Source: Deltaproteobacteria bacterium (GTDB lineage: Bacteria > Desulfobacterota > Desulfobulbia > Desulfobulbales > S012-135). From it: a DNA stretch of 24,000 nt. This document shows positions 1 through 11,941 of the stretch, piece after piece. The DNA lies in contig WFOD01000047.1 in the NCBI GenBank assembly GCA_015488275.1, forward strand, positions 781 through 24,780, written 5' to 3'. Every line of letters begins with the position of its first letter. The stretch's first letter is position 1. The notes beneath the pieces were generated by a model that saw nothing but the letters and a program-made list of their open reading frames with translations, did not search any database and had not been told where the DNA came from. The position numbers and the translations under genes are program-made.

Positions 1-1
1 C

Positions 2-202
2 TACGGCATGGAAGAGGCGGGCGGCACCCAGTGCCTGCTCCTTGCCGGCGTGGACTTCGACCTGCTCGGCTTCAATCCCCGTATCGACAACGTACCCTAT
101 CCGCAGTTCACCTGGGCCTATATCAAGAAAGTGCCGGTGCTCATCGGCCTGCTCTTGGCCGCTGGCACAGCGATCCACCGGTTGACCAGGGAACGCGACT
201 GA
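2..202 (+). CDS. hybA: C-terminal end of a HybA-like 4Fe-4S ferredoxin-type hydrogenase electron-transfer subunit (5' end lies outside the window)
   Basis: The frame is open from the window edge to TGA 200-202. [24 protein letters not shown] resembles the YGE-EAGGTQ-L-L-GV-F--L segment near the C-terminus of HybA/NrfC/PsrB-type subunits (recalled from memory). A hydrophobic C-terminal anchor follows ([15 protein letters not shown]). It lies directly upstream of the large subunit. Confidence 0.5.
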
Positions 203-228
203 ACGAACTCACCACTGGAGGAAGACAC

Positions 229-1929
229 ATGGCGCGGCGCATCACCATCGACCCGGTAACCCGAATCGAGGGCCACCTGCGTATCGACTGCGAGGTCCGC
301 GACGGCGCAGTGACAAAGGCGTGGTCCTCGGGCCAGATGTGGCGGGGATTCGAGCTGATCCTCCAGGGCCGCGATCCTCTGGAGGCATGGCTGTACACCC
401 AGCGGTTCTGCGGCGTGTGAACGTCGGTGCACGCACTGGTCTCAGTGCGTACAGTGGAAAACGCCCTCAACCTCGAGGTGCCGAAAAACGCCCAGTACAT
501 CCGCAACATGATCATGGGCGCCCATGCGGTGCACGATCACATCGTCCACTTCTACCATCTCTGCGCCCTGGACTGGGTGGATATCGTTTCCGCCTTGTCA
601 GCCGATCCGCGGGCCGCGGCCCGCTTGGCCCAGAGCCTCTCCGACTGGCACCGCAACACCTACGAGGAGATGAAGGCCACCCAGGAGCGGCTCCAAGCCC
701 TGGTCAACTCAGGCCAACTTGGCGTTTTCGGCTCAGGGTACTGGGGCCATCCGGCCATGAAGCTGCCGCCAGAGGTCAACCTGCTGGCGGCCACCCATTA
801 CCTCCAGGCCCTGGAGTACCAGCGGGAGATCAACAAGGTGGTGGCCCTGCTGGGCGGCAAAACGCCCCACATCCAAAACGTGGCCGTGGGCGGCGTGGCC
901 AATCCCATCAACCTGGACAGCCCGGACACCCTGAACATGGAACGGCTGTACCACATCCGCACCCTGCTCGACAAGGCCGACGCCTTTGTCAAGAAGGTGG
1001 CCCTGGTGGATGTGGCCGCGGTAGGCGCCTTCTACGCCGACTGGACCGCGCATGGCACCGGGGTGACCAACTACCTTTCCGCGCCGGACATGCCAATGGA
1101 CGAACAGGGAACAGAGTTCTTCCTCCCCGGCGGCTACATCCCGGCCGGTGATGTGGGGGCCTTTACCGCCATCACCTCGTTCGACGATCCGTTTTTTGAA
1201 AAAAACGTCCAGGAATCGATCAAACACTCCTGGTACGACGGCGACTGGCACCGCCATCCCTACGAGGAGGAAACCGTGCCCCGCTACACCGATTTCCAGG
1301 ACGATGGCAAGTACTCGTGGGTCAAGTCGCCAACCTTCAAGGACGAGCCCGCCCAGGTGGGCCCCCTGGCCAACGTGCTGTGTATGTACGCCGCTGGCCA
1401 CGAGCCGACCAAGAAGTACGTGCACCAGGTCCTCGACACGGTGTCCACTCTGGCCAAAACCAAGGTGGGCGTCCCAGCCCTGCACTCGACCATCGGCCGG
1501 ATCGCGGCCCGGGTGGTCCGCTGCGCCGTGCTCAACGACACGCTGGCCCACCAGTGGCGGTCCCTGGTGGCCAACATCGAGTCGGGCGACACCAGCACCT
1601 TCAACCCGCCATCCATGCCCAGCGGCACGGTGCAGGGATTCGGTTTCCACGAGGCCCCGCGGGGCATTCTCTCCCACTGGATCGTCATCGACAACGGCAA
1701 GGTCAAGAACTACCAGGCCGTGGTGCCCTCCACCTGGAACGCCGGGCCGCGCAATCACAACGATGCGCCCGGCCCTTACGAGGCGGCGCTGGTCGGCACG
1801 CCGCTGGCCGATCCAGAACAGCCCCTGGAGGTCCTGCGCACCATCCATTCCTTTGATCCATGCCTGGCGTGCGCCATCCATCTGTTTGACCCCGCTGGCG
1901 GCGAGCTGGTGCAGGTGCGGGCGCTGTGA
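229..1929 (+). CDS. hybC: [NiFe]-hydrogenase large subunit, HybC-type, read through an in-frame UGA at 418-420 (predicted selenocysteine)
   Basis: GGAGGA (217-222) precedes ATG 229. The N-terminus [23 protein letters not shown]...QRFCGV-[TGA][16 protein letters not shown] is collinear with E. coli HybC. The track ORFs 31-420 and 427-1929 are in the same frame. The C-terminus has the DPCLACAIH motif (1855-1881) plus a 15-aa extension for proteolytic maturation. Internal conserved blocks include [39 protein letters not shown] and [10 protein letters not shown]. Confidence 0.85.
418..420 (+). other. In-frame UGA at the position of the second Cys of the RxCGxC (L1) motif; predicted Sec codon
   Basis: It is the only stop interrupting an otherwise full-length large-subunit frame. 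It aligns to a metal-ligating Cys. A SECIS-like hairpin follows. Confidence 0.7.
428..453 (+). promoter_or_regulatory. SECIS-like stem-loop within the coding sequence, downstream of the UGA
   Basis: Perfect 7-bp stem ACGCACT (431-437) / AGTGCGT (444-450) with loop GGTCTC (438-443). Two further pairs are possible below a C/A mismatch (428-429 with 452-453). The loop GGUC sits at +21 to +24 counted from the U of UGA; in E. coli fdhF it sits at +22 to +25. Confidence 0.65.
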
Positions 1930-2552
1930 AAGCGACAGGCCAACACAAAGGCCACAGGTCAAGGGACAGGCACGACGGCCCAGGGCGGCGGCCGGCCATC
2001 CTGGTGGTTGGAGTGGGCAACGTCTTGTTGCGCGACGAAGGGGTAGGGCTGCACGTGCTGGCCGAACTGGCCCGCCACTACCGGTTCGGTCCTGATACCG
2101 AACTGCTGGACGGCGGCACGTCTGGCATTGAGCTGTTGCGGCATGTGACGGGCCGGGAACTGTGCCTCTTCATCGACGCCATGCAATCCGGCGCGCCTCC
2201 GGGCACGGTGACGGTCTTTCGCGACCAGCAGGTAGGGGCGCGGCTCTCCTCCCGCATCTCGCCCCACCAACTGGGGCTTTCCGACCTCCTAGCCGCCGCC
2301 TTGCTCACTGGCGAGACGCCCAAGCGGGTGGTTCTGGTGGGCATCGAGCCGGCGGTCCTCGATCCAGGGGTCGATCTTTCGCCCCCAGTGGCCCGCGCCG
2401 TGCCAGAGGCCATGCGCCGGGTCATTGCCGAGCTTGCCGCCCACGGGGCGCAAGCACGACCACGGACAGAGCCGCTAACGGGAGGGCCGCGCTTTTTCTG
2501 GCGCAACGAACGGGAGCCTCAGGAGCATACAACGGTCCAGGCAACGGGCTGA
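1926..2552 (+). CDS. hybD: Hydrogenase maturation endopeptidase (HybD/HyaD/HupD family)
   Basis: ILVVGVGNVLLRDEGVGLHV, LLDGGTSG, FIDAM and SPHQLG match the family metal-binding Glu/Asp/His blocks. The GTG start overlaps the hybC stop (GTGA). The true start is uncertain because of a basic N-terminal extension. Confidence 0.88.
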   Translation: MKATGQHKGHRSRDRHDGPGRRPAILVVGVGNVLLRDEGVGLHVLAELARHYRFGPDTELLDGGTSGIELLRHVTGRELCLFIDAMQSGAPPGTVTVFRDQQVGARLSSRISPHQLGLSDLLAAALLTGETPKRVVLVGIEPAVLDPGVDLSPPVARAVPEAMRRVIAELAAHGAQARPRTEPLTGGPRFFWRNEREPQEHTTVQATG

Positions 2553-2568: not shown

Positions 2569-3702
2569 ATGAACGGGCAACAGCACGACATCAAGATGTG
2601 GACCCCGCATACAGTGATCCTTTTCGTCCTCATGCTGGTGGGCCTTGCCGCCATGACCTACCGGCTCCTTTACGGCCTCGGCGCCGCCTCGGGCATGAAC
2701 GACGTGTATCCCTGGGGCTTCTGGCTCGCCTTCGACGTGTTGGGCGGAGTGGCGATGGCCGCTGGCGGATTCATCATCGCCTGTGCCATCTACATCTTTA
2801 ACTGGAAGAAATACAAGCCCATTGGCAGGCCGGCCATCCTCACCGCCTTTCTCGGCTACCTCATGGCCGTGGTCGCCCTGTTTCTCGATATCGGCCATCC
2901 CTTGCGCCTCTGGCATCCGATGGTCATGTGGCAGGTCCATTCGGTGATGTGGGTGGTGGCGATCCATGTCATCCTCTACACCACCACCTTGGGCATCGAA
3001 TCGTCGCCCATGCTCTTGGAAAAACTCGGCTGGCAACGCACGCTGGCCGTGCTCAAAAAGCTGATGGTGGGAGCGGTCATCTTTGGCGTCATGCTCTCCA
3101 CCCTGCACCAGGCATCCTTGGGCGCGGTCTTTTTGATCACCGGCCCCCGCATGTCGCCTCTGTGGTACACCCAGTTTCTGCCTTATCTTTTCCTGGTCTC
3201 GGCCATCGCTATGGGCCTGGCAATGGTGAGCATGGAGGCGATGTTCAGCTCTTGGGCCTTCAACCACCGCATCCCAGGCGAAATCTTTACCGGCCTGGCG
3301 GCCGGCCTGCGCAACACCTTGGCCGTCTACCTCGTTCTCAAGCTTTTTTTCCTCATCAAGAACGCTGGCATTGGCGCAGCCCTGGACGGCAGCCTGGCCG
3401 GCAACATGTACCTGGCCGAGATGCTCATCGGCGTGGTGATGCCGCTCGCCGTGCTCACCTTTGCCGGCACCCATCTGGACCGCCTTTCGCTCCTCGTGGT
3501 CAACGTGCTGGTCATCGGCGGCGTGCTCCTCAACCGGCTCAACGTCTGTCTGTTCAGCATGGAGGAGTACGCTGAATTCCGGGGCGGCTCCTACCTGCCT
3601 ACCTTGCCCGAGCTGCTCATCACTCTTGGCATCGTGGCCCTGGGCGTGTTCCTTTTCAAGATGGCGGCCAAACACCTGCCGCTCTTTGCCGCGGAAAATT
3701 GA
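2569..3702 (+). CDS. hybB: NrfD/PsrC-family integral membrane subunit of the hydrogenase (HybB-like)
   Basis: AAGGAG lies upstream of ATG 2569. The protein is polytopic and hydrophobic. YPWGFWLAFDVLGGVAMAAGGF, LEKLGW, STLHQASLGAVFL and LPTLPELLITLGIVAL are collinear with E. coli HybB as recalled. Confidence 0.85.
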   Translation: MNGQQHDIKMWTPHTVILFVLMLVGLAAMTYRLLYGLGAASGMNDVYPWGFWLAFDVLGGVAMAAGGFIIACAIYIFNWKKYKPIGRPAILTAFLGYLMAVVALFLDIGHPLRLWHPMVMWQVHSVMWVVAIHVILYTTTLGIESSPMLLEKLGWQRTLAVLKKLMVGAVIFGVMLSTLHQASLGAVFLITGPRMSPLWYTQFLPYLFLVSAIAMGLAMVSMEAMFSSWAFNHRIPGEIFTGLAAGLRNTLAVYLVLKLFFLIKNAGIGAALDGSLAGNMYLAEMLIGVVMPLAVLTFAGTHLDRLSLLVVNVLVIGGVLLNRLNVCLFSMEEYAEFRGGSYLPTLPELLITLGIVALGVFLFKMAAKHLPLFAAEN

Positions 3703-3741: not shown

Positions 3742-4083
3742 ATGCATGAGTTGAGCTTGGCATGTTCGCTGGTGGATCTGGCCTGCCAGCGGGCGCAAGA
3801 GGAAGGGGCGAGCCGCATCACCGCCCTGGAGGTCGAGGTGGGGGCCCTGGCCGGAGTGATGCGCGAGGCCCTGGCCTTTGGCTTTGAGGCCGCCTGCCGC
3901 GACACCCTGGCCCAAGGGGCGCGACTCGTGATCATCGAGGAGCCGGCCAAGGGTGTATGCAGCGCATGCCGCGTCACCTGCCGGCTGGCCCGGTTCACCA
4001 TCACCTGCCCGGCCTGCGGCGCGGCGGCGCTCGAAATCAGCGGTGGAGACCGTCTCTGCCTGCGCGCCATTGAGGTAGCGTGA
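3742..4083 (+). CDS. hypA: Hydrogenase nickel-insertion protein HypA
   Basis: N-terminal MHELSL motif. Two CxxC pairs are present (CSACRV ... CPACG). Size is 113 aa. Confidence 0.92.
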   Translation: MHELSLACSLVDLACQRAQEEGASRITALEVEVGALAGVMREALAFGFEAACRDTLAQGARLVIIEEPAKGVCSACRVTCRLARFTITCPACGAAALEISGGDRLCLRAIEVA

Positions 4084-4179
4084 GCCAACAAGCGGCGGCG
4101 CAAACGTAAAAGTGATCACAGGACTGCCTCTTCGAACGCCGAAGTCGCAGCCTCGCAGACCAGCAACCAAGGATCCATC

Positions 4180-4902
4180 ATGTGCACCGACTGCGGTTGC
4201 CACCCGCATCATCCCGACGACACCCCGCATACGGGTGATCCAGGGGACGGGTACGCCTCCCGCCGTCTCTTGGTGGAGGCGGCGGCCACTGCGGCCAACG
4301 ACGAGACGGCCCGCCACAACCGGGAGGCGTTTCGCCGCCAGCGGCTCACGGCCCTCAACCTGATGAGCTCGCCAGGGGCGGGCAAGACATCGATCCTGGA
4401 GCGGACCATCCGCCACCTGGCCGGCCGCCGGCCGGTATATGTCATCGAGGGTGACCAGCAGACGCGCAACGACGCCGAGCGGATCGAGCGGGCCGGCGCA
4501 ACAGCGGTACAGATCAACACGGGCAGCGGCTGCCATCTGGAGGCCGGCATGGTGGCCCGGGCCGTGGAGCGGCTCGATCCCCTTCCAGGCGGCCTGCTGT
4601 TCATCGAGAACGTCGGCAACCTCGTGTGCCCGGCCATGTTCGATCTCGGCGAGCAGGCCAAGGTGGTCATCATCAGCGTAACCGAGGGTGACGACAAGCC
4701 GGAAAAATACCCCTACATGTTCCGGGCCGCCCGGCTCTGCCTGATCAACAAGACCGACCTGCTCCCCTACGTGGACTTTGATCCCGGCCGCTGCCGGCAA
4801 CTCGCCCGGGCGGTGAACCCGCACATCACCTGCATCGAGCTGTCGGCCCGCACCGGCGAGGGATTCGACGCCTGGCTGCAATGGCTTTCCGGGCTGGCGT
4901 AA
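4180..4902 (+). CDS. hypB: Hydrogenase nickel-incorporation GTPase HypB
   Basis: N-terminal MCTDCGC high-affinity metal motif. P-loop SSPGAGKTS. Also ENVGNLVCPA and the NKTDL G4 motif. Confidence 0.95.
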   Translation: MCTDCGCHPHHPDDTPHTGDPGDGYASRRLLVEAAATAANDETARHNREAFRRQRLTALNLMSSPGAGKTSILERTIRHLAGRRPVYVIEGDQQTRNDAERIERAGATAVQINTGSGCHLEAGMVARAVERLDPLPGGLLFIENVGNLVCPAMFDLGEQAKVVIISVTEGDDKPEKYPYMFRAARLCLINKTDLLPYVDFDPGRCRQLARAVNPHITCIELSARTGEGFDAWLQWLSGLA

Positions 4903-7211
4903 AACGCACCGCGAGCCACGCCTTGCCGCGCCCGCGCCACGGGGAGAACGCACGGCTGCGTATCGAGGTGCAAGGTTTTGTCCAGGGCGTGGGCTTCCGG
5001 CCACACGTCTATCGCCTGGCCACCCGCCTCGGGCTCAGCGGCTTTGTGCGCAACACGCCAGCAGGCGTGGAGATCGAAGTGCAGGGGCCGGCCGGGACGC
5101 TGGCCCGCTTTCAGGACGAACTTGCGGCCTCGCCACCGCCGGCGGCCCGTATCCTGGCCCTGCACACAGAGCGGGTCCGGCCGGGCGCTGAACGCTCTTT
5201 TGTCATCCACCCCTCGACCGCCGGCCACGCGGCCACCGCCCTGGCCAGTCCCGACATCGCCCTGTGCGCCGATTGCCGCCGCGAACTGTTCGCCGCCGGC
5301 GACCGCCGGCACCGCTATCCCTTCATCAACTGCACCAACTGCGGCCCGCGGTTTACCATTATCGAATCCCTGCCGTACGACCGGCCGGCGACCACCATGC
5401 GCTCCTTCACCATGTGCGCGGCCTGCCGACAGGAATACGAGGATCCGGCAGACCGCCGCTTCCACGCCCAGCCCAACGCCTGCCCGGCCTGCGGGCCGGC
5501 ACTCGTGCTGCTGGCCCCTACGGGCGCTCTCCTTGCCCGGCGCGAGGCGGCCCTGGCCGGCGCGCGCCACGAGCTGCGGGCCGGAAACATCGTGGCCATC
5601 AAGGGCATCGGCGGCTTCCACCTCGCCGTGGACGCGGCCAATGCAATGGCCGTGCACCGTCTGCGGCGGCGTAAACGCCGGCCGAGCAAGCCCTTTGCCC
5701 TCATGGTCCGCGACCTTGCCACCGCCCGCCGTATCTGCCGCCTTTCCCCCCAGGAAGAAGCGGCGCTCTGCTCGTGGCGGGCGCCCATCGTGCTCTTGGA
5801 ACGCCTCGCCGCCGCCGATCGCCTCGCCGCCGCCGTGGCCCCAGGACTGGACCGGCTGGGGATCATGCTGCCGTACACGCCGCTCCACCATCTCATCCTG
5901 GCCGACGGACCGGACATCCTGGTCATGACCAGCGGCAACCGCAGCGGTGAACCCATCGTCACCAGCAACGACGAGGCGATGCAGCGCCTCTCCCCGCTGG
6001 CCGACGCCATTCTGGCCCACGACCGCGACATCGTGCTCCCGTGCGACGATTCGGTGGAGATCCAGCTTGGCCAGGGGGTCGTCCCCCTGCGCCGCGGCCG
6101 GGGATGGACGCCGGCCCCCCTGCCCCTCGCCGGTCCGGCTTCCCTTGGCCCGCCGGTGCTCGCCACAGGCGGCGACATGAAAAACGCGGCCTGCACCTTG
6201 CGCCATGACCTCGCCTTTGCCGGACCGCACGTGGGCGACGTGGACACGCCAGCCGGCCTTGCGGCCTTTGCCAAGGCGATCGCCCACATGGAGCATCTCC
6301 TGGGGGTGCGGCCGGAAATCGTGGCCTGCGACCCGCATCCCGACTATCTGACCCGTCAATGGGCCGCGGCCTGCGGCCGCACCGTTGTGGAGGTGCAGCA
6401 CCATCACGCCCACTTTGCCGCCTGCCTGGCCGAAAACCGGCTCAGCGGGCCAGCGGTGGGGCTGATCCTCGACGGCACGGGCTACGGCCTGGACAACACG
6501 ATATGGGGCGGCGAAATCCTGGTGGGCGACGCGCGGCACACGGCGCGGCGCGGCCATCTGCGGCCCCTGCGCCTGGTGGGCGGCGAGCGGGCGATCCGCG
6601 AGCCCTGGCGCACCGGCATCGGCTTTCTTTTGCAAGTGGCGGAACCCAGCCTGCTGCCCGCGCATCTGCAGACCTATCCCTGGCAGATGCTGGCCCAGGC
6701 CCTGGCCGCAGGCATCAACGCGCCGCTCACCACGAGCTGTGGCCGGTTGTTCGACGCGGCCGCCGCCATCACCGGCCGCTGTCTGCGCGCCTCCTTTGAC
6801 GGAGAAGCGCCCATGCGCCTGTCGGCCGCCCTGACCCTGCCCGCCGACCATCTTTACCCGGTGCGCCTGGAGGAAAAGGACGGTATACTGGTGCTCGATA
6901 CCGGCCCGCTCCTGGCCGGCATGGCCGGCGACATGCAAGCCGGCGTCGGGGCCGAGAGGATCAGCGGCCGCTTCCACGCCTCGCTCGCCCATCTCCTGGC
7001 CAGCGCCGCTGCTCAGGTGGCGGCCGACGAGGGGCTCGATATCGTGGTCCTGTCCGGCGGCTGCTGGGCCAACCCGCATCTCTTCCATCTCGTGCGCCGC
7101 GAGCTCGCCGAACGCGGCCTGCGGGTCGCCCGCCACCAATTCCTGCCGCCCGGTGATGGCGGGCTTGGCCTGGGGCAGGCGGTAACGGCGCGGTTGCGGG
7201 CGGCCGGTTAG
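4881..7211 (+). CDS. hypF: Carbamoyltransferase HypF
   Basis: Acylphosphatase-like VQGVGFRPHVYRLA. Two zinc-finger repeats (CADCRREL..NCTNCGPRFTII and CAACRQEY..ACPACGP). YrdC-like IKGIGGFHLA and a Kae1-like C-terminal half. Starts 22 nt inside the hypB 3' end; the exact start is uncertain. Confidence 0.93.
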   Translation: MAFRAGVKRTASHALPRPRHGENARLRIEVQGFVQGVGFRPHVYRLATRLGLSGFVRNTPAGVEIEVQGPAGTLARFQDELAASPPPAARILALHTERVRPGAERSFVIHPSTAGHAATALASPDIALCADCRRELFAAGDRRHRYPFINCTNCGPRFTIIESLPYDRPATTMRSFTMCAACRQEYEDPADRRFHAQPNACPACGPALVLLAPTGALLARREAALAGARHELRAGNIVAIKGIGGFHLAVDAANAMAVHRLRRRKRRPSKPFALMVRDLATARRICRLSPQEEAALCSWRAPIVLLERLAAADRLAAAVAPGLDRLGIMLPYTPLHHLILADGPDILVMTSGNRSGEPIVTSNDEAMQRLSPLADAILAHDRDIVLPCDDSVEIQLGQGVVPLRRGRGWTPAPLPLAGPASLGPPVLATGGDMKNAACTLRHDLAFAGPHVGDVDTPAGLAAFAKAIAHMEHLLGVRPEIVACDPHPDYLTRQWAAACGRTVVEVQHHHAHFAACLAENRLSGPAVGLILDGTGYGLDNTIWGGEILVGDARHTARRGHLRPLRLVGGERAIREPWRTGIGFLLQVAEPSLLPAHLQTYPWQMLAQALAAGINAPLTTSCGRLFDAAAAITGRCLRASFDGEAPMRLSAALTLPADHLYPVRLEEKDGILVLDTGPLLAGMAGDMQAGVGAERISGRFHASLAHLLASAAAQVAADEGLDIVVLSGGCWANPHLFHLVRRELAERGLRVARHQFLPPGDGGLGLGQAVTARLRAAG

Positions 7212-7233
7212 CAGCCCGTTGCACAACGGGCTG
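7212..7233. repeat. Short palindromic hairpin CAGCCCGT-tgcaca-ACGGGCTG immediately after the hypF stop
   Basis: 8-bp perfect inverted repeat read directly. The same stem sequence recurs at 9890-9916 and as the basal stem of element C (20059-20100). Confidence 0.55.
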
Positions 7234-7323
7234 TGCGCGACACACGGATGCGCCACTGACGCTGCAGATGGGATACCCTGTGACCAGATACCTGCCGGAA
7301 ACACCAAGGAGGAGCCATACGCC

Positions 7324-7662
7324 ATGTGTCTCGCCATCCCAGGCCAGGTAGCCACGATCACCGACGAGGGAGGCTTGCGCATGGCCGAGGTGGCCTACGG
7401 TCCTGTCCGCAACAGGGTCTGTTTGGCATATCTGCCAGAGGCCAAGGTCGGCGACTTTGTGATCGTCCACGCAGGGTTCGCCATCTCGATCCTGGACGAG
7501 GCCGAGGCGGCCGAGCGCCTGGCCGCCTGGCGCGAGTACGTGGAGGAGGCCCGGCGGGCTGGAATGGAGATCCCAGAAGCCGATACCGTACTCCAGGCCC
7601 TGGAGACGCCGGAACGCCCCAAGAAGCACGTTACGGACGACGACCATCACGAACGCCGCTGA
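7324..7662 (+). CDS. hypC: Hydrogenase assembly chaperone HypC
   Basis: [10 protein letters not shown]-terminus, where the essential Cys2 must follow the initiator Met. AGGAGG lies about 12 nt upstream. [17 protein letters not shown] core. The charged C-terminal tail is longer than usual. Confidence 0.9.
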
Positions 7663-7685
7663 CCGCCCGCTCCTGGAGCCAAACC

Positions 7686-8782
<1,097 letters not shown>

Positions 8783-8786
<4 letters not shown>

Positions 8787-9844
8787 ACCGCGCCAAGCCC
8801 CCTCCTTCTTGCCCCCTGCCAGGAGCCGCCGCCGGCAACGGCCGCATCACCCTGGCGCACGGAAGCGGCGGCCGGCTGAGCGCCGAACTCATCGAGCGCC
8901 TCGTGCGCCGCCACTTCAGCAATCCGGCCCTCGACCGGCTGGAAGACGCGGCCACCCTGCCCGCCACCAGCGGCCGGCTGGCCTTTTCCACCGACACCTT
9001 TGTTGTCCAACCGCGTTTTTTCCCTGGCGGCAACATCGGCGAGTTGGCGGTGAACGGCACGGTGAACGATCTCGCCATGATGGGGGCCCGTCCCCGCTGG
9101 TTGAGCGTGGGGTTTGTGCTGGAAGAGGGCTTTTCCCTGGCCGAACTCGAAGAGATCTGCGCCAGCATGCGCCAGGCCGCGGACAACGCCGGGGTAACGA
9201 TCGTGACCGGCGACACCAAGGTGGTGGGACGCGGCGGCTGCGACGGCCTGTTCATCAATACCGCTGGGATCGGCGTGGTGCCGGAGGGCGTGGATCTGGG
9301 CGCGCACCGCATCCAGGCCGGCGACCGCCTCATCGTCTCTGGTCCGATCGGCAGTCATGGCATGGCCGTGATGCTCGCCCGCGGCCAGCTCTCCTTTGCC
9401 TCGGAGATCGCCAGCGACACCGCGCCCCTGGCCGGGCTGGCCGTCGATATCCTGCGCGCCGCAGGCAGCGGCCTCCACGCCATGCGCGACGCCACCCGCG
9501 GCGGTCTTGGCGCAGTGCTGGCCGAGTTCGGCCGCGCCGCTTCCCTTGGCATGGAGATCACCGAACAACGGCTTCCCGTGCCGCCGGACGTCCAGGCCGC
9601 CTGCGACATCCTGGGCCTCGACCCGCTCTTCGTGGCCAACGAAGGGGTGCTGGTGGCCGTGGTGACGCCGGAGACGGCGGACGCCGTGCTCGCCGCCTGC
9701 CACGCGCATCCGCAAGGCAGGCACGCGGCCTGCATCGGCGCGGTGTGCGCCGAGCATCCTGGCAAACTCCTCAGACGCACGCCCTTTGGCGGCCGGCAAA
9801 TCGTGGCCGTTCCAGCGGGCGAGCTGCTGCCGCGCATCTGTTGA
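8783..9844 (+). CDS. hypE: Hydrogenase maturation protein HypE (carbamoyl dehydratase)
   Basis: ATGA overlap with the hypD stop. LAHGSGG N-terminal motif, AIR-synthase-like body, and the C-terminal PRIC motif ending the protein. Confidence 0.95.
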
Positions 9845-10723: not shown

Positions 10724-11059
10724 TTATTGACACGGGGCCGAAGGGCGCGTCGTGCTCGGCGATGAAGCGGCGCGGGCAGCCACCTGCTTCGGGGATGTGT
10801 GGGTAGAGAATTTTATCTCAATGGGCAGGAGGCCGAATTTGCCCTCCAGAACCAGATCCACCTCGGCGCCGTGCTTGGTTTGGAAATAAAAATATTCCCA
10901 GCGCGTCGCGCTGGTCGCCTGCCCACCCTTGATGATCTCCTTGATGACGAACGATTCGAAATTCTGACCTATCCGAGGGGAGCGGATCATCTTTTCCCGG
11001 GAGTCGATTCCGGCGAGATAGTGGAGCAGGGCCGTGAGGTTCCTTTCCAGTACGGTCAT
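10724..11059 (-). pseudogene. Remnant of a DUF4143-type AAA+ ATPase (C-terminal domain only)
   Basis: LLHYLAGI..PRIGQNFESFVIKEIIKG..WEYFYFQTKHGAEVDLVLEG..LLPIEIKFS matches the C-terminal DUF4143 region of this ATPase family. The roughly 250-aa N-terminal ATPase domain is missing (TAA 3 codons upstream of the Met). The C-terminal tail drifts into GC-rich Ala/Ser/Pro sequence. Confidence 0.6.
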
Positions 11060-11248
11060 ATTCTGATGTTACATCAGGTTTTTCCCGGTATGAAAGAACG
11101 GCGACAGGAATTTGGGGCTCTTCTCTCGCCGCCATCCCATGCGAAAGGGTGGCCAACGGCGTGTTTCCGCCCTCCGGTTCGTTCCTGGTCATGGACGGCC
11201 AGGTGCCGCTCCGCCCCCCTGGCCGGGCCGTTCCGGACCGCGGTCCTG

Positions 11249-11273
11249 GCCGGCCCGGCGAAAGCAAATTCCT
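11249..11273. repeat. Islet repeat, copy 2: GCCGGCCCGGCGAAAGCAAATTCCT
   Basis: 25/25 identical to 11985-12009, in direct orientation. Confidence 0.85.
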
Positions 11274-11298
11274 GTCAACTGTTACGAGACCGTCACAA

Positions 11299-11327
11299 TT
11301 GACAATGTGAGTCGCGCATGATAGAGT
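11299..11327 (+). promoter_or_regulatory. Candidate sigma70-type promoter of the toxin-antitoxin operon
   Basis: TTGACA (11299-11304), a 17-nt spacer, then TAGAGT (11322-11327), about 65 nt upstream of the antitoxin ATG. Followed by reiterated TAG(A)GTTGA / TAGTTGA / TAGTTCGA motifs (11322-11362) that could be operator sites. Confidence 0.35.
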
Positions 11328-11393
11328 TGAGCTAAATTATAGTTGACCTATATTTAGTTCGATTGCTGGGCGTGTCACTGAAGGAGGTTGTCC

Positions 11394-11651
11394 ATGAATA
11401 TCCTTTCCGTCTCGGAGGCGAAAATGAAGCTCAGCTCCCTGGTCGATTCTGTCAAGGCGACCGATCAGGAGGTGGTTATTACCAAGAACGGCAAGCCAGT
11501 CGCTGTCCTGGTGAGCCCTGAAGAGTTCGAGGGGTGGCGGGAGACCATATCCATACATTCCGACGCCGACCTGATGCAGGAGATCAGAAGAGGATTGAAG
11601 GCCTTAAAGAAGAACAGGAGCGATCTTTATTCACTTGAGGAACTGTTGTAA
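11394..11651 (+). CDS. Type II antitoxin, Phd/YefM family
   Basis: AAGGAGG lies 6 nt upstream of ATG 11394. MNILSVSEAKMKLSSLVDSV...VVITKNGKPVAVLVSPEEFEGWRET is a typical Phd/YefM N-terminal fold signature. The toxin gene starts 3 nt after its stop. Confidence 0.85.
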   Translation: MNILSVSEAKMKLSSLVDSVKATDQEVVITKNGKPVAVLVSPEEFEGWRETISIHSDADLMQEIRRGLKALKKNRSDLYSLEELL

Positions 11652-11653
11652 GG

Positions 11654-11941
11654 ATGGCTGGTGAATATCGATTGCGTGTGCCGGTTGAAACCGCAGCATT
11701 TTTGAGGAAACTGCATCCCAAGATCAAACGGCACATCAAGTCGGCCCTTGAGATGATTGTCAATGATCCTTTCTTGGGAAAGCCGCTCAAAGACGATCTG
11801 GAAGGTTTGCGAAGTTTGCGCGTCAAAAGGTACCGAATTGTCTACCGGGTCGCGGTTCCTTTCCGGGAAATAGAGATCGTCGCCATTGGACCCAAAAGAA
11901 ATATTTATGAGGACACATTCAGGCTTATCAGCCGTGAATGA
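11654..11941 (+). CDS. Type II toxin, RelE/ParE family
   Basis: 95 aa. KIKRHIKSALEMIVNDPFLGKPLKDDLEGLRSLRVKRYRIVYRV...IEIVAIGPKRNIY matches the RelE/ParE family pattern. Tight coupling with the upstream antitoxin. Confidence 0.85.
   Translation: MAGEYRLRVPVETAAFLRKLHPKIKRHIKSALEMIVNDPFLGKPLKDDLEGLRSLRVKRYRIVYRVAVPFREIEIVAIGPKRNIYEDTFRLISRE

Follow-up and report, generated by a model that had tools for sequence, protein, structure and literature searches.

Probable selenocysteine recoding of an in-frame UGA at the Ni-Fe bridging cysteine position of a Hyb-type [NiFe]-hydrogenase large subunit from Desulfobulbales

In a stretch of 24,000 nucleotides from a deltaproteobacterial genome (Desulfobacterota, Desulfobulbales; GenBank assembly GCA_015488275.1, contig WFOD01000047.1, positions 781 to 24,780 of the forward strand, hereafter the window), a gene for the large subunit of a hybC-like [NiFe]-hydrogenase is crossed by one in-frame TGA codon at positions 418-420, which raises the question of whether translation ends there or continues. 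The public annotation of the same gene (GCA_027073345.1) divides it into two open reading frames (ORFs) of 63 and 500 amino acids. An earlier note, made from the letters of the window alone, had joined the two parts into one large subunit of about 566 amino acids, had placed the stop on the second cysteine of the RxCGxC nickel-binding motif, and had judged recoding as selenocysteine (Sec) a better fit than a nonsense mutation. The comparisons described below point in the same direction, as did each of the refuting checks from that note that were run, and we consider it likely, with a probability of roughly 0.88, that UGA codon 64 of this gene is recoded as Sec, given the conserved TGA, a SECIS-like (selenocysteine insertion sequence) hairpin downstream of it, and purifying selection on the coding sequence to either side of it.

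The frame assumed by the earlier note was confirmed. It opens at ATG 229, runs through 63 codons (229-417) to the TGA, is open from 421 to 1926 and ends at a second TGA (1927-1929). The Pfam family NiFeSe_Hases (PF00374) matches with its columns 1-25 before the first TGA (31 bits) and with columns 27-508 after it (658 bits), and the single column skipped is the TGA itself. With Cys placed at this codon, residues 1-566 of the read-through protein align with residues 1-567 of HybC, the large subunit of Escherichia coli hydrogenase 2 (Hyd-2; 6EN9_L, 776 bits). In this alignment the TGA faces Cys64 of the block QRICGVC, which the earlier note had given correctly. By a wide margin the best NCBIfam match is the hydrogenase 2 large subunit (NF007778, 858.7 bits), although the score stays under the equivalog cutoff of 969 bits and the protein is therefore HybC-like and no strict equivalog of E. 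coli HybC. The resemblance to E. coli Hyd-2 (6EN9/6EHQ, Group 1c) comprises the end-to-end alignment, the L1 and C-terminal motifs and a 15-residue tail, and it extends to the accompanying genes, namely hybA, hybD, one resembling hybB and the hyp genes. The two differ at residue 64, a UGA codon in the window and Cys in HybC, and in gene order, which is hybA-hybC-hybD-hybB in the window and O-A-B-C-D in E. coli. By its sequence, the gene at 229-1929 is the large subunit of a Hyb-type (Group 1c-like) periplasmic uptake [NiFe]-hydrogenase.

Two other placements were examined. The C-terminal motif of the window protein, DPCLACAIH, is intact together with the 15-residue tail, as the earlier note had stated, and it carries Cys at both ligand positions (TGC at 1861-1863). 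The DPUxxC motif of classical [NiFeSe]-hydrogenases is thus lacking, so the arrangement differs from that of the classical enzymes, and the corresponding HysA model NF045518 was missed (351 bits against a cutoff of 780). The N-terminal motif has the form CXXU (Cys, two residues, Sec) that has been surveyed in Group 4 hydrogenases; despite this, the best structural matches are HybC and other Group 1 enzymes, NuoD-like Group 4 relatives reach 30-34 bits, and the operon is of the hybA/hybB type and not one with genes of an antiporter-type complex.

A trivial explanation would be that sequencing or assembly turned a TGC or TGT into TGA by mistake, or that TGA is a sense codon in this organism. The source is a metagenome-assembled genome (MAG), which lends an error some initial plausibility. 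The codon is nevertheless TGA, followed by 48 identical nucleotides, in eight independent assemblies (two NCBI MAGs, five ENA assemblies (one hydrothermal-vent metagenome) and one Logan run assembly), which come from different samples and pipelines and differ by up to 1.5% elsewhere (genes 98.5-100% identical overall). These assemblies stood in for the inspection of raw reads that had been proposed. Fourteen contigs encode the 63-residue upstream product in identical form. As for an altered code, TGA is a normal stop at the three sites already listed in the earlier note (200-202, 2550-2552 and 4081-4083), and of 12 genes in the cluster whose stops were checked it terminates 9, hybC itself included; the genetic code is therefore standard. 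Both the error and the altered code are refuted by these observations.

Another possibility is that the TGA is a genuine nonsense mutation, marking a pseudogene or a recent inactivation, as the two ORFs of the public annotation might suggest. We compared the gene with four orthologous loci at 83-87% protein identity (L002, L003, L122 and L124), in which the TGA is invariant while the codons flanking it change synonymously (GTG/GTC and ACG/ACT). Against these four loci, at a proportion of synonymous differences (pS) of about 0.5, the 63 codons that precede the TGA gave a ratio of non-synonymous to synonymous substitution (dN/dS) of 0.04-0.05, and the 502 codons that follow gave 0.12-0.17. Purifying selection is strong on both halves of the gene. 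Among 146 loci with TGA at this codon, which were collected in the scans described below, the downstream ORF was intact (at least 495 amino acids) in 109 and ran off the contig in 25, while the remaining 12 contained extra stops, a pattern that would favour decay. These 12 (L033, L039, L071, L073, L076, L097, L117, L119, L136, L142, L143 and L176, with internal stops or frameshifts) derive mostly from the long-read 'MFD' MAG series, and sequencing frameshifts seem a likelier cause than decay. A pseudogene would also have to account for a TGA at the same codon across phyla and at divergences where pS is about 0.5 or higher, for the retained hyp and hybD genes, and for a hairpin under selection at synonymous sites. 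The scattered decay in orthologues that the earlier note had named as a sign of inactivation was not seen, and there were neither near-1 dN/dS values nor scattered stops in the window's own clade. Inactivation is effectively refuted, and we regard it as very improbable.

The TGA could also be a true stop within a split enzyme, in which a 63-residue peptide and a protein of about 500 residues, restarted at GTG 427, assemble non-covalently. Split large subunits exist in methanococci (VhuA and VhuU of Methanococcus voltae), and in the window gene callers start the second ORF at a GTG (427-429) two codons beyond the TGA. Among 69 related sequences, however, the codon at this position is GTC in 37, GTT in 17, GTA in 11 and GTG in only 4, so no restart codon is conserved, and the starts called for the second ORF vary among records from 2 to 11 codons after the TGA. 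A split at this point would, moreover, leave the enzyme with only three of its four essential metal ligands. We therefore find a split enzyme highly improbable.

Recoding of UGA as Sec in bacteria calls for a SECIS, and a candidate lies immediately downstream. The hairpin at 431-450, with the stem strands ACGCACUG and CAGUGCGU around the loop GUCU, begins 10 nt after the UGA, and its four-nucleotide loop occupies nt 22-25 counted from the U of UGA, with G as first base. It was absent from the earlier note and proved the strongest local evidence. Hairpins of this form are called type A below; all 53 unique type A sequences retain the stem, and U.G wobble pairs account for the variants. We compared third-position entropy over 191 codons with a conserved degenerate amino acid in 40 complete genes, a set defined by phylogeny: hairpin codons 69, 70, 72, 73 and 74 were the five lowest of all (0-0.47 bits against a mean of 1.56), no background codon was at or below 0.30 bits, and a permutation test gave p<1e-5. 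The same codons vary freely in relatives with Cys at this position (Cys-type). The hairpin is under RNA-level selection, and it is this comparative signal at synonymous sites, rather than stability, that we take as decisive for a proposed SECIS.

The SECIS of E. coli fdhF offers a reference, as it folds with a GGUC loop at nt 22-25; its sequence was verified as exact against 5,419 E. coli genomes. Both it and the window hairpin are stem-loops that start some 10-11 nt past the UGA, and in both the four-nucleotide loop at nt 22-25 includes G and U; the window hairpin differs in its perfect 8-bp stem with no bulged U and in the loop letters, GUCU versus GGUC, which are offset by one. A possible lower stem below the window hairpin was seen in the minimum free energy (MFE) fold alone and is doubtful because it is poorly conserved among relatives.

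If codon 64 is decoded in the way proposed here, the hairpin would act as a bacterial SECIS: with the ribosome at the UGA, its G-led apical loop would be bound by SelB-GTP-Sec-tRNASec, and Sec would be inserted at codon 64 instead of termination. Sec64 would then stand where RxCGxC has its second Cys, and the bridge between Ni and Fe would be a selenolate in place of a thiolate; the other three ligands (C61, C545 and C548) are Cys. HypA-F would build and insert the cofactor and HybD would trim the 15-residue C-terminal tail, a cleavage by the maturation endopeptidase that is expected from the established maturation of Group 1 enzymes. The enzyme would be exported by the twin-arginine translocation (Tat) system together with the small subunit, and it would work with HybA and HybB in electron transfer from H2 to quinone.

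The TGA is not confined to the window's clade. The comparison of TGA with TGC/TGT that the earlier note had recommended was carried out, and TGA was conserved in the window's clade as well as in over 140 other genes of the Hyb type. We scanned a single genome for each GTDB species with a degenerate nucleotide pattern encoding (E/Q)R-x-C-G-(V/I)-TGA-xxx-H-A, a TGA-targeted search that gave at least 120 matches where about 17 were expected by chance (an estimate from the information content of the pattern). Among the 120 matches listed, 105 were Hyb-type large subunits, 8 were chance matches and 7 belonged to a shorter second type. The Hyb-type genes share an architecture of 63-75 codons, TGA and 502-524 codons ending in DPC(L/M/I)AC, and among the matches listed they occur in Desulfobulbia, Desulfobacterales, Desulfobacca, Nitrospirota/Thermodesulfovibrionales, Anaerolineae and other Chloroflexota, Spirochaetes, Rokubacteria and Nitrospinaceae. 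A protein-guided metagenome scan without codon bias returned 38 sequences with TGA and 16 with TGC/TGT. In total 147 Hyb-type sequences with TGA and 17 with TGC/TGT were collected, counts that do not give a Sec-to-Cys ratio, as the genome scan part was TGA-targeted, and the prevalence is a lower bound. True Cys-type enzymes are abundant at 70-80% identity. In a neighbour-joining tree of 222 proteins the Sec-types (those with TGA) and Cys-types were interleaved, with at least 13 parsimony changes, a rough figure given the lack of support values and the uneven sampling.

When the stem register of the window was applied to all Sec-type sequences it failed for about half of them and was given up, and separate hairpin classes were therefore recognised. 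In the 54 nt 3' of each TGA (loci L004-L191), 120 of the 122 unique Sec-type sequences belong to one of four classes, with G in loop position 1 or 2 throughout. Type A is the form of the window, ACGCACUG-GUCU-CAGUGCGU; type B is CUCGGUC-CGGGC-GAUCGAG (nt 24-42); type C is GACCUC-GG(C/U)-GAGGUC, in which an Arg codon is switched to AGG to build the stem; and type D is xGCUC-CGUGC-GAGCx. Compensatory pairs were found in type D at 22-36 (A-T in 27, T-A in 14) and in type C at 19-37 (C-G in 8, T-A in 3). Types A, C and D were formed by none of the 17 Cys-type sequences. Proteins with type A hairpins read HAL.SVR where Cys-type enzymes read HA(I/V).SVR; together with the AGG Arg codon of type C, this indicates that SECIS and protein sequence constrain each other.

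Several results weigh against Sec at codon 64 and have to be set beside this evidence. Genes for selA, selB, selD and tRNA-Sec were not found in positions 1-33849 of the source contig record (about 34 kb) or in the short flanks of the other loci. No Rfam match to a SECIS or to any other meaningful family was obtained, either for the whole window at gathering thresholds or for positions 380-520 at E-values up to 10. The folding energy of the hairpin is unremarkable (z -1.6 to -1.95, with 9-13 of 200 shuffles folding equally well). The type A stem is almost invariant, so that its support comes from conservation and wobble variants with little covariation, and a B-like stem is formed by 9 of the 17 Cys-type sequences as well, which makes type B not discriminating. 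Finally, the conserved UGA and the evidence for a SECIS would fit equally well with insertion of another amino acid through the same route, as discussed next.

Folding energy was dropped as evidence for a SECIS after unconvincing z-scores (-1.3 to -1.95 over all folds) and after the mean MFE had turned out alike in Sec-type (-15.07 kcal/mol) and Cys-type sequences (-15.03 kcal/mol); comparative tests took its place. The searches for decoding genes likewise gave no tRNA-Sec with ARAGORN in the window or in any related locus fetched, and no tblastn matches to E. coli SelA and SelB in the related loci fetched. Up to record position 33849 the source contig carries housekeeping and transport genes and no other obvious selenoprotein.

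Decoding by SECIS and SelB could deliver Cys instead of Sec if the UGA were read by a tRNA-ReC (SelC*-type), which would leave an ordinary four-Cys [NiFe] enzyme. Genes resembling tRNA-ReC occur in about 17% of the genomes with Sec-type Group 4 hydrogenases, Desulfobacterota included, where UGA may then mean Cys (PMC13582414). They are rare, however, with single-Sec CXXU or UXXC variants (about 2.3%) and concentrated in UXXU types (PMC13582414), and no tRNA of this kind was found in the window or the related loci. A Cys product would also leave a TGA and a constrained hairpin with no evident advantage over TGC, and yet both have been kept across many lineages. We judge tRNA-ReC decoding improbable, and Sec remains the amino acid that we predict at residue 64.

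Placed among known hydrogenases, the predicted enzyme combines features of several. It shares with the classical [NiFeSe]-hydrogenases (Desulfomicrobium baculatum 1CC1 and Desulfovibrio vulgaris Hildenborough HysA, Group 1a) the affiliation with periplasmic Group 1 enzymes and one metal-binding Cys position encoded by UGA. In those enzymes the UGA encodes Sec with a downstream SECIS, whereas in the window Sec is predicted from the UGA and a proposed SECIS; and Sec stands there at the first C-terminal Cys (DPUxxC), a terminal Ni ligand, while in the window it would stand at the second N-terminal Cys, a bridging position (PMC13582414). Takano et al. 2026 (PMC13582414, September 2026) surveyed N-terminal CXXU, UXXC and UXXU variants in Group 4 only, with 27 CXXU sequences, and describe the second N-terminal Cys position, in the context of CXXU variants, as the one that bridges Ni and Fe. 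The Group 4 variants and the window protein have in common the N-terminal CXXU and a Sec predicted to bridge Ni and Fe; the former belong to energy-converting complexes and the latter to a Hyb-type respiratory uptake hydrogenase of Group 1.

The closest experimental counterpart is the engineered C79U variant of E. coli hydrogenase 1 (Hyd-1; Evans et al. 2021, PMC8020662), a Group 1 enzyme with Sec at the same second Cys of the N-terminal motif. It assembles and oxidizes H2 at 13% of the native rate, the best of four single Sec variants, and shows no gain in activity or O2 tolerance (PMC8020662), so the advantage that maintains the natural Sec variant is not explained by it. Hyd-1 C79U is artificial (UAG/EF-Tu insertion) and an O2-tolerant Group 1d enzyme, whereas the window variant is natural, would depend on the proposed SECIS, and has been maintained in evolution.

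The novelty implied by the earlier note was too high in one respect. In the passage concerned, PMC13582414 credits two Group 1 and one Group 3 N-terminal CXXU sequences to Baltazar et al. 2011, so that the variant had been noted for Group 1 before. The corresponding passage of PMC8020662 calls natural bridging substitutions 'purported' and places the case of Baltazar et al. 2011 at C579, the C-terminal bridging Cys; on this point the two passages disagree. A 2026 review of prokaryotic selenoproteomes gives UxxC as the sole form for hydrogenase catalytic subunits, and our literature search returned no paper linking selenocysteine with HybC or Group 1c enzymes. The window gene belongs to an N-terminal CXXU variant already known, though very sparsely documented and without a characterised example, while the breadth of the Hyb-type Sec class, its several SECIS designs and a tandem pair appear not to have been described before.

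This tandem pair lies in a Chloroflexi MAG (L058, CALMIS010000294.1, 3760-7343), where a Sec-type and a Cys-type hybC, 78% identical, stand in tandem on one strand. The Sec-type copy has its TGA at about 4001-4003 and its ORF reaches 5533; the Cys-type paralogue spans 5643-7343 (566 amino acids), and the three ORFs upstream are probably hybO, hybA and hybB. Methanococci have Sec/Cys hydrogenase isoenzyme pairs, and by analogy the tandem looks like such a pair.

At residue 96 (window 514-516, ATG) each of the 42 type A enzymes has Met, as do most enzymes of types B and C, whereas 103 of the 128 Cys-type enzymes have Ile and E. coli HybC has Leu. Met96 may have arisen as a co-adaptation to a selenium atom at position 64, a lead from counts across sequences that share ancestry.

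The shorter second type reads QR(V/I)CGV-TGA-P(V/I)GHA over 479-498 amino acids (L095, L035, L106, L006, L022 and L116). It passes the model NF033181 'NiFeSe_hydrog' (694 against 600 bits), yet its C-terminal DPCLAC has Cys, and it has a hairpin of its own, CCAGCGC-GGGAUC-GCGCUGG. One member (L095, 5793-7235), a Group 1a-like enzyme, is from Syntrophomonas zehnderi OL-4 (NZ_CGIH01000013.1), a cultured isolate, so that its CXXU enzyme is experimentally tractable. This shorter type may be what the 2011 review of Baltazar et al. saw.

The features of the window are compiled in Table 1. Public record JALSWK010000411.1 (GCA_027073345.1, L001) covers the same locus, with window positions equal to L001 positions minus 893, and contains the full hybA gene (L001 118-1095), whose product scores 357 bits with NF008134, above the cutoff of 263. 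The protease, hybB and hypABFCDE genes that the earlier note had listed after hybC were all matched by Pfam, with an NrfD-type hybB.

Table 1. Features of the hydrogenase locus in window coordinates, with the basis of each assignment.
Feature	Position	Strand	Details and basis
hybA 3' end (Fe-S electron-transfer subunit), cut by window start	1..202	+	Stop TGA 200-202; NF008134
Shine-Dalgarno-like GGAGG	217..221	+	7 nt 5' of ATG 229; direct sequence reading
hybC-like gene for [NiFe]-hydrogenase large subunit, with read-through of TGA 418-420	229..1929	+	566 codons, predicted Sec64; HybC alignment, NF007778, dN/dS
L1 nickel-binding motif R59-F-C61-G-V-U64 (CGG TTC TGC GGC GTG TGA), U64 predicted	403..420	+	Aligned to HybC R59-I-C61-G-V-C64
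In-frame UGA, proposed Sec64 codon replacing second (Ni-Fe bridging) Cys	418..420	+	Conservation in relatives and assemblies
Possible lower stem (doubtful), pairs 424-426/455-457 and 428-429/452-453	424..457	+	MFE fold alone
Proposed SECIS upper stem-loop ACGCACUG / GUCU / CAGUGCGU	431..450	+	8 bp, apical loop 439-442; MFE fold
C-terminal nickel-binding motif D543-P-C545-L-A-C548-A-I-H551	1855..1881	+	Both ligands Cys
15-residue C-terminal extension and TGA stop	1882..1929	+	Extension expected to be removed by maturation endopeptidase
hybD-type maturation endopeptidase	1926..2552	+	Pfam HycI; TIGR00072 145 bits against cutoff 47, match from residue 25
hybB-like NrfD-family integral membrane subunit	2569..3702	+	Pfam NrfD
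hypA	3742-4083	+	Pfam and public gene calls
hypB	4180-4902	+	Pfam and public gene calls
hypF	4881-7211	+	Pfam and public gene calls
hypC	7324-7662	+	Pfam and public gene calls
hypD	7686-8786	+	Pfam and public gene calls
hypE	8783-9844	+	Pfam and public gene calls

The hybD ORF is listed from a GTG at 1926 that overlaps the hybC stop; its homologue in L122, the closest species-level relative, is shorter by 35 residues, and the real start probably lies downstream of 1926. The hybB-like protein stays under both NCBIfam cutoffs, with 261 bits for the HybB-type model NF008133 and 263 bits for HmcC. The six hyp genes (3742..9844, plus strand) make up a complete maturation set for the NiFe(CN)2CO cofactor.

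The source contig opens inside hybA, and the small-subunit gene is outside it. In L122 the operon reads hybO-hybA-hybC(TGA)-hybD-hybB-hypA, and the small subunit scores 471 bits with TIGR00391 and carries the twin-arginine signal SRRDFIK near its start. The assemblies of 41.5 kb (NCBI, L001/L194) and 45.7 kb (ENA, L195) both stop just 5' of hybA, at the expected position of the small-subunit gene, while the shorter contigs L196 and L197 include part of that gene. The breaks 5' of hybA suggest a repeat or a paralogous small-subunit gene.

The other genes of the window encode a thioesterase, a ParE/Phd pair, a permease, threonine synthase, iPGM, a sensor kinase, FBPase and an MFS transporter, none of them selenium-related. 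Just after the hyp cluster the guanine-cytosine (GC) content falls from about 0.65 to 0.53 (window 10724-11941), in a segment that holds a DUF4143 fragment (10724-11059, minus strand) and a PhdYeFM/ParE toxin-antitoxin pair (ParE at 11654-11941). At the related locus L002 a ParE gene follows hybB directly, without hyp genes. The GC dip at 10724-11941 may be a small mobile insertion.

We lean slightly towards the broader view that Hyb-type (Group 1c-like) hydrogenases with Sec as Ni-Fe bridging ligand form a large, essentially unrecognised natural class, for which the case consists of at least 105 species-level genomes, at least 13 switches between Sec and Cys in a rough tree, at least four SECIS elements of independent shape and one tandem pair. 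To our knowledge, everything that is known of [NiFeSe]-hydrogenases from biochemistry and structures concerns selenium as a terminal nickel ligand; we know of no natural enzyme with selenium bridging Ni and Fe that has been characterised, and the only data come from the engineered E. coli variant, which was simply slower. Owing to the split annotation as 63 and about 500 amino acids and to catalogues that hold UxxC only, hydrogenase classifiers and selenoproteome catalogues are likely to miss or miscount these genes, and if the class is real, truncated gene calls would distort the counts of Hyb-type Sec hydrogenases in metagenomic surveys. Bridging selenium would then also bring some selective advantage, one that did not show in the engineered C79U variant of E. 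coli. The genes are conserved, under selection and widespread in anaerobes of sediment, groundwater and vents, sometimes paired with a Cys isoenzyme, and in named taxa such as Desulfobacca they would offer natural targets for the effect of bridging selenium on catalytic bias, inhibitor tolerance and maturation.

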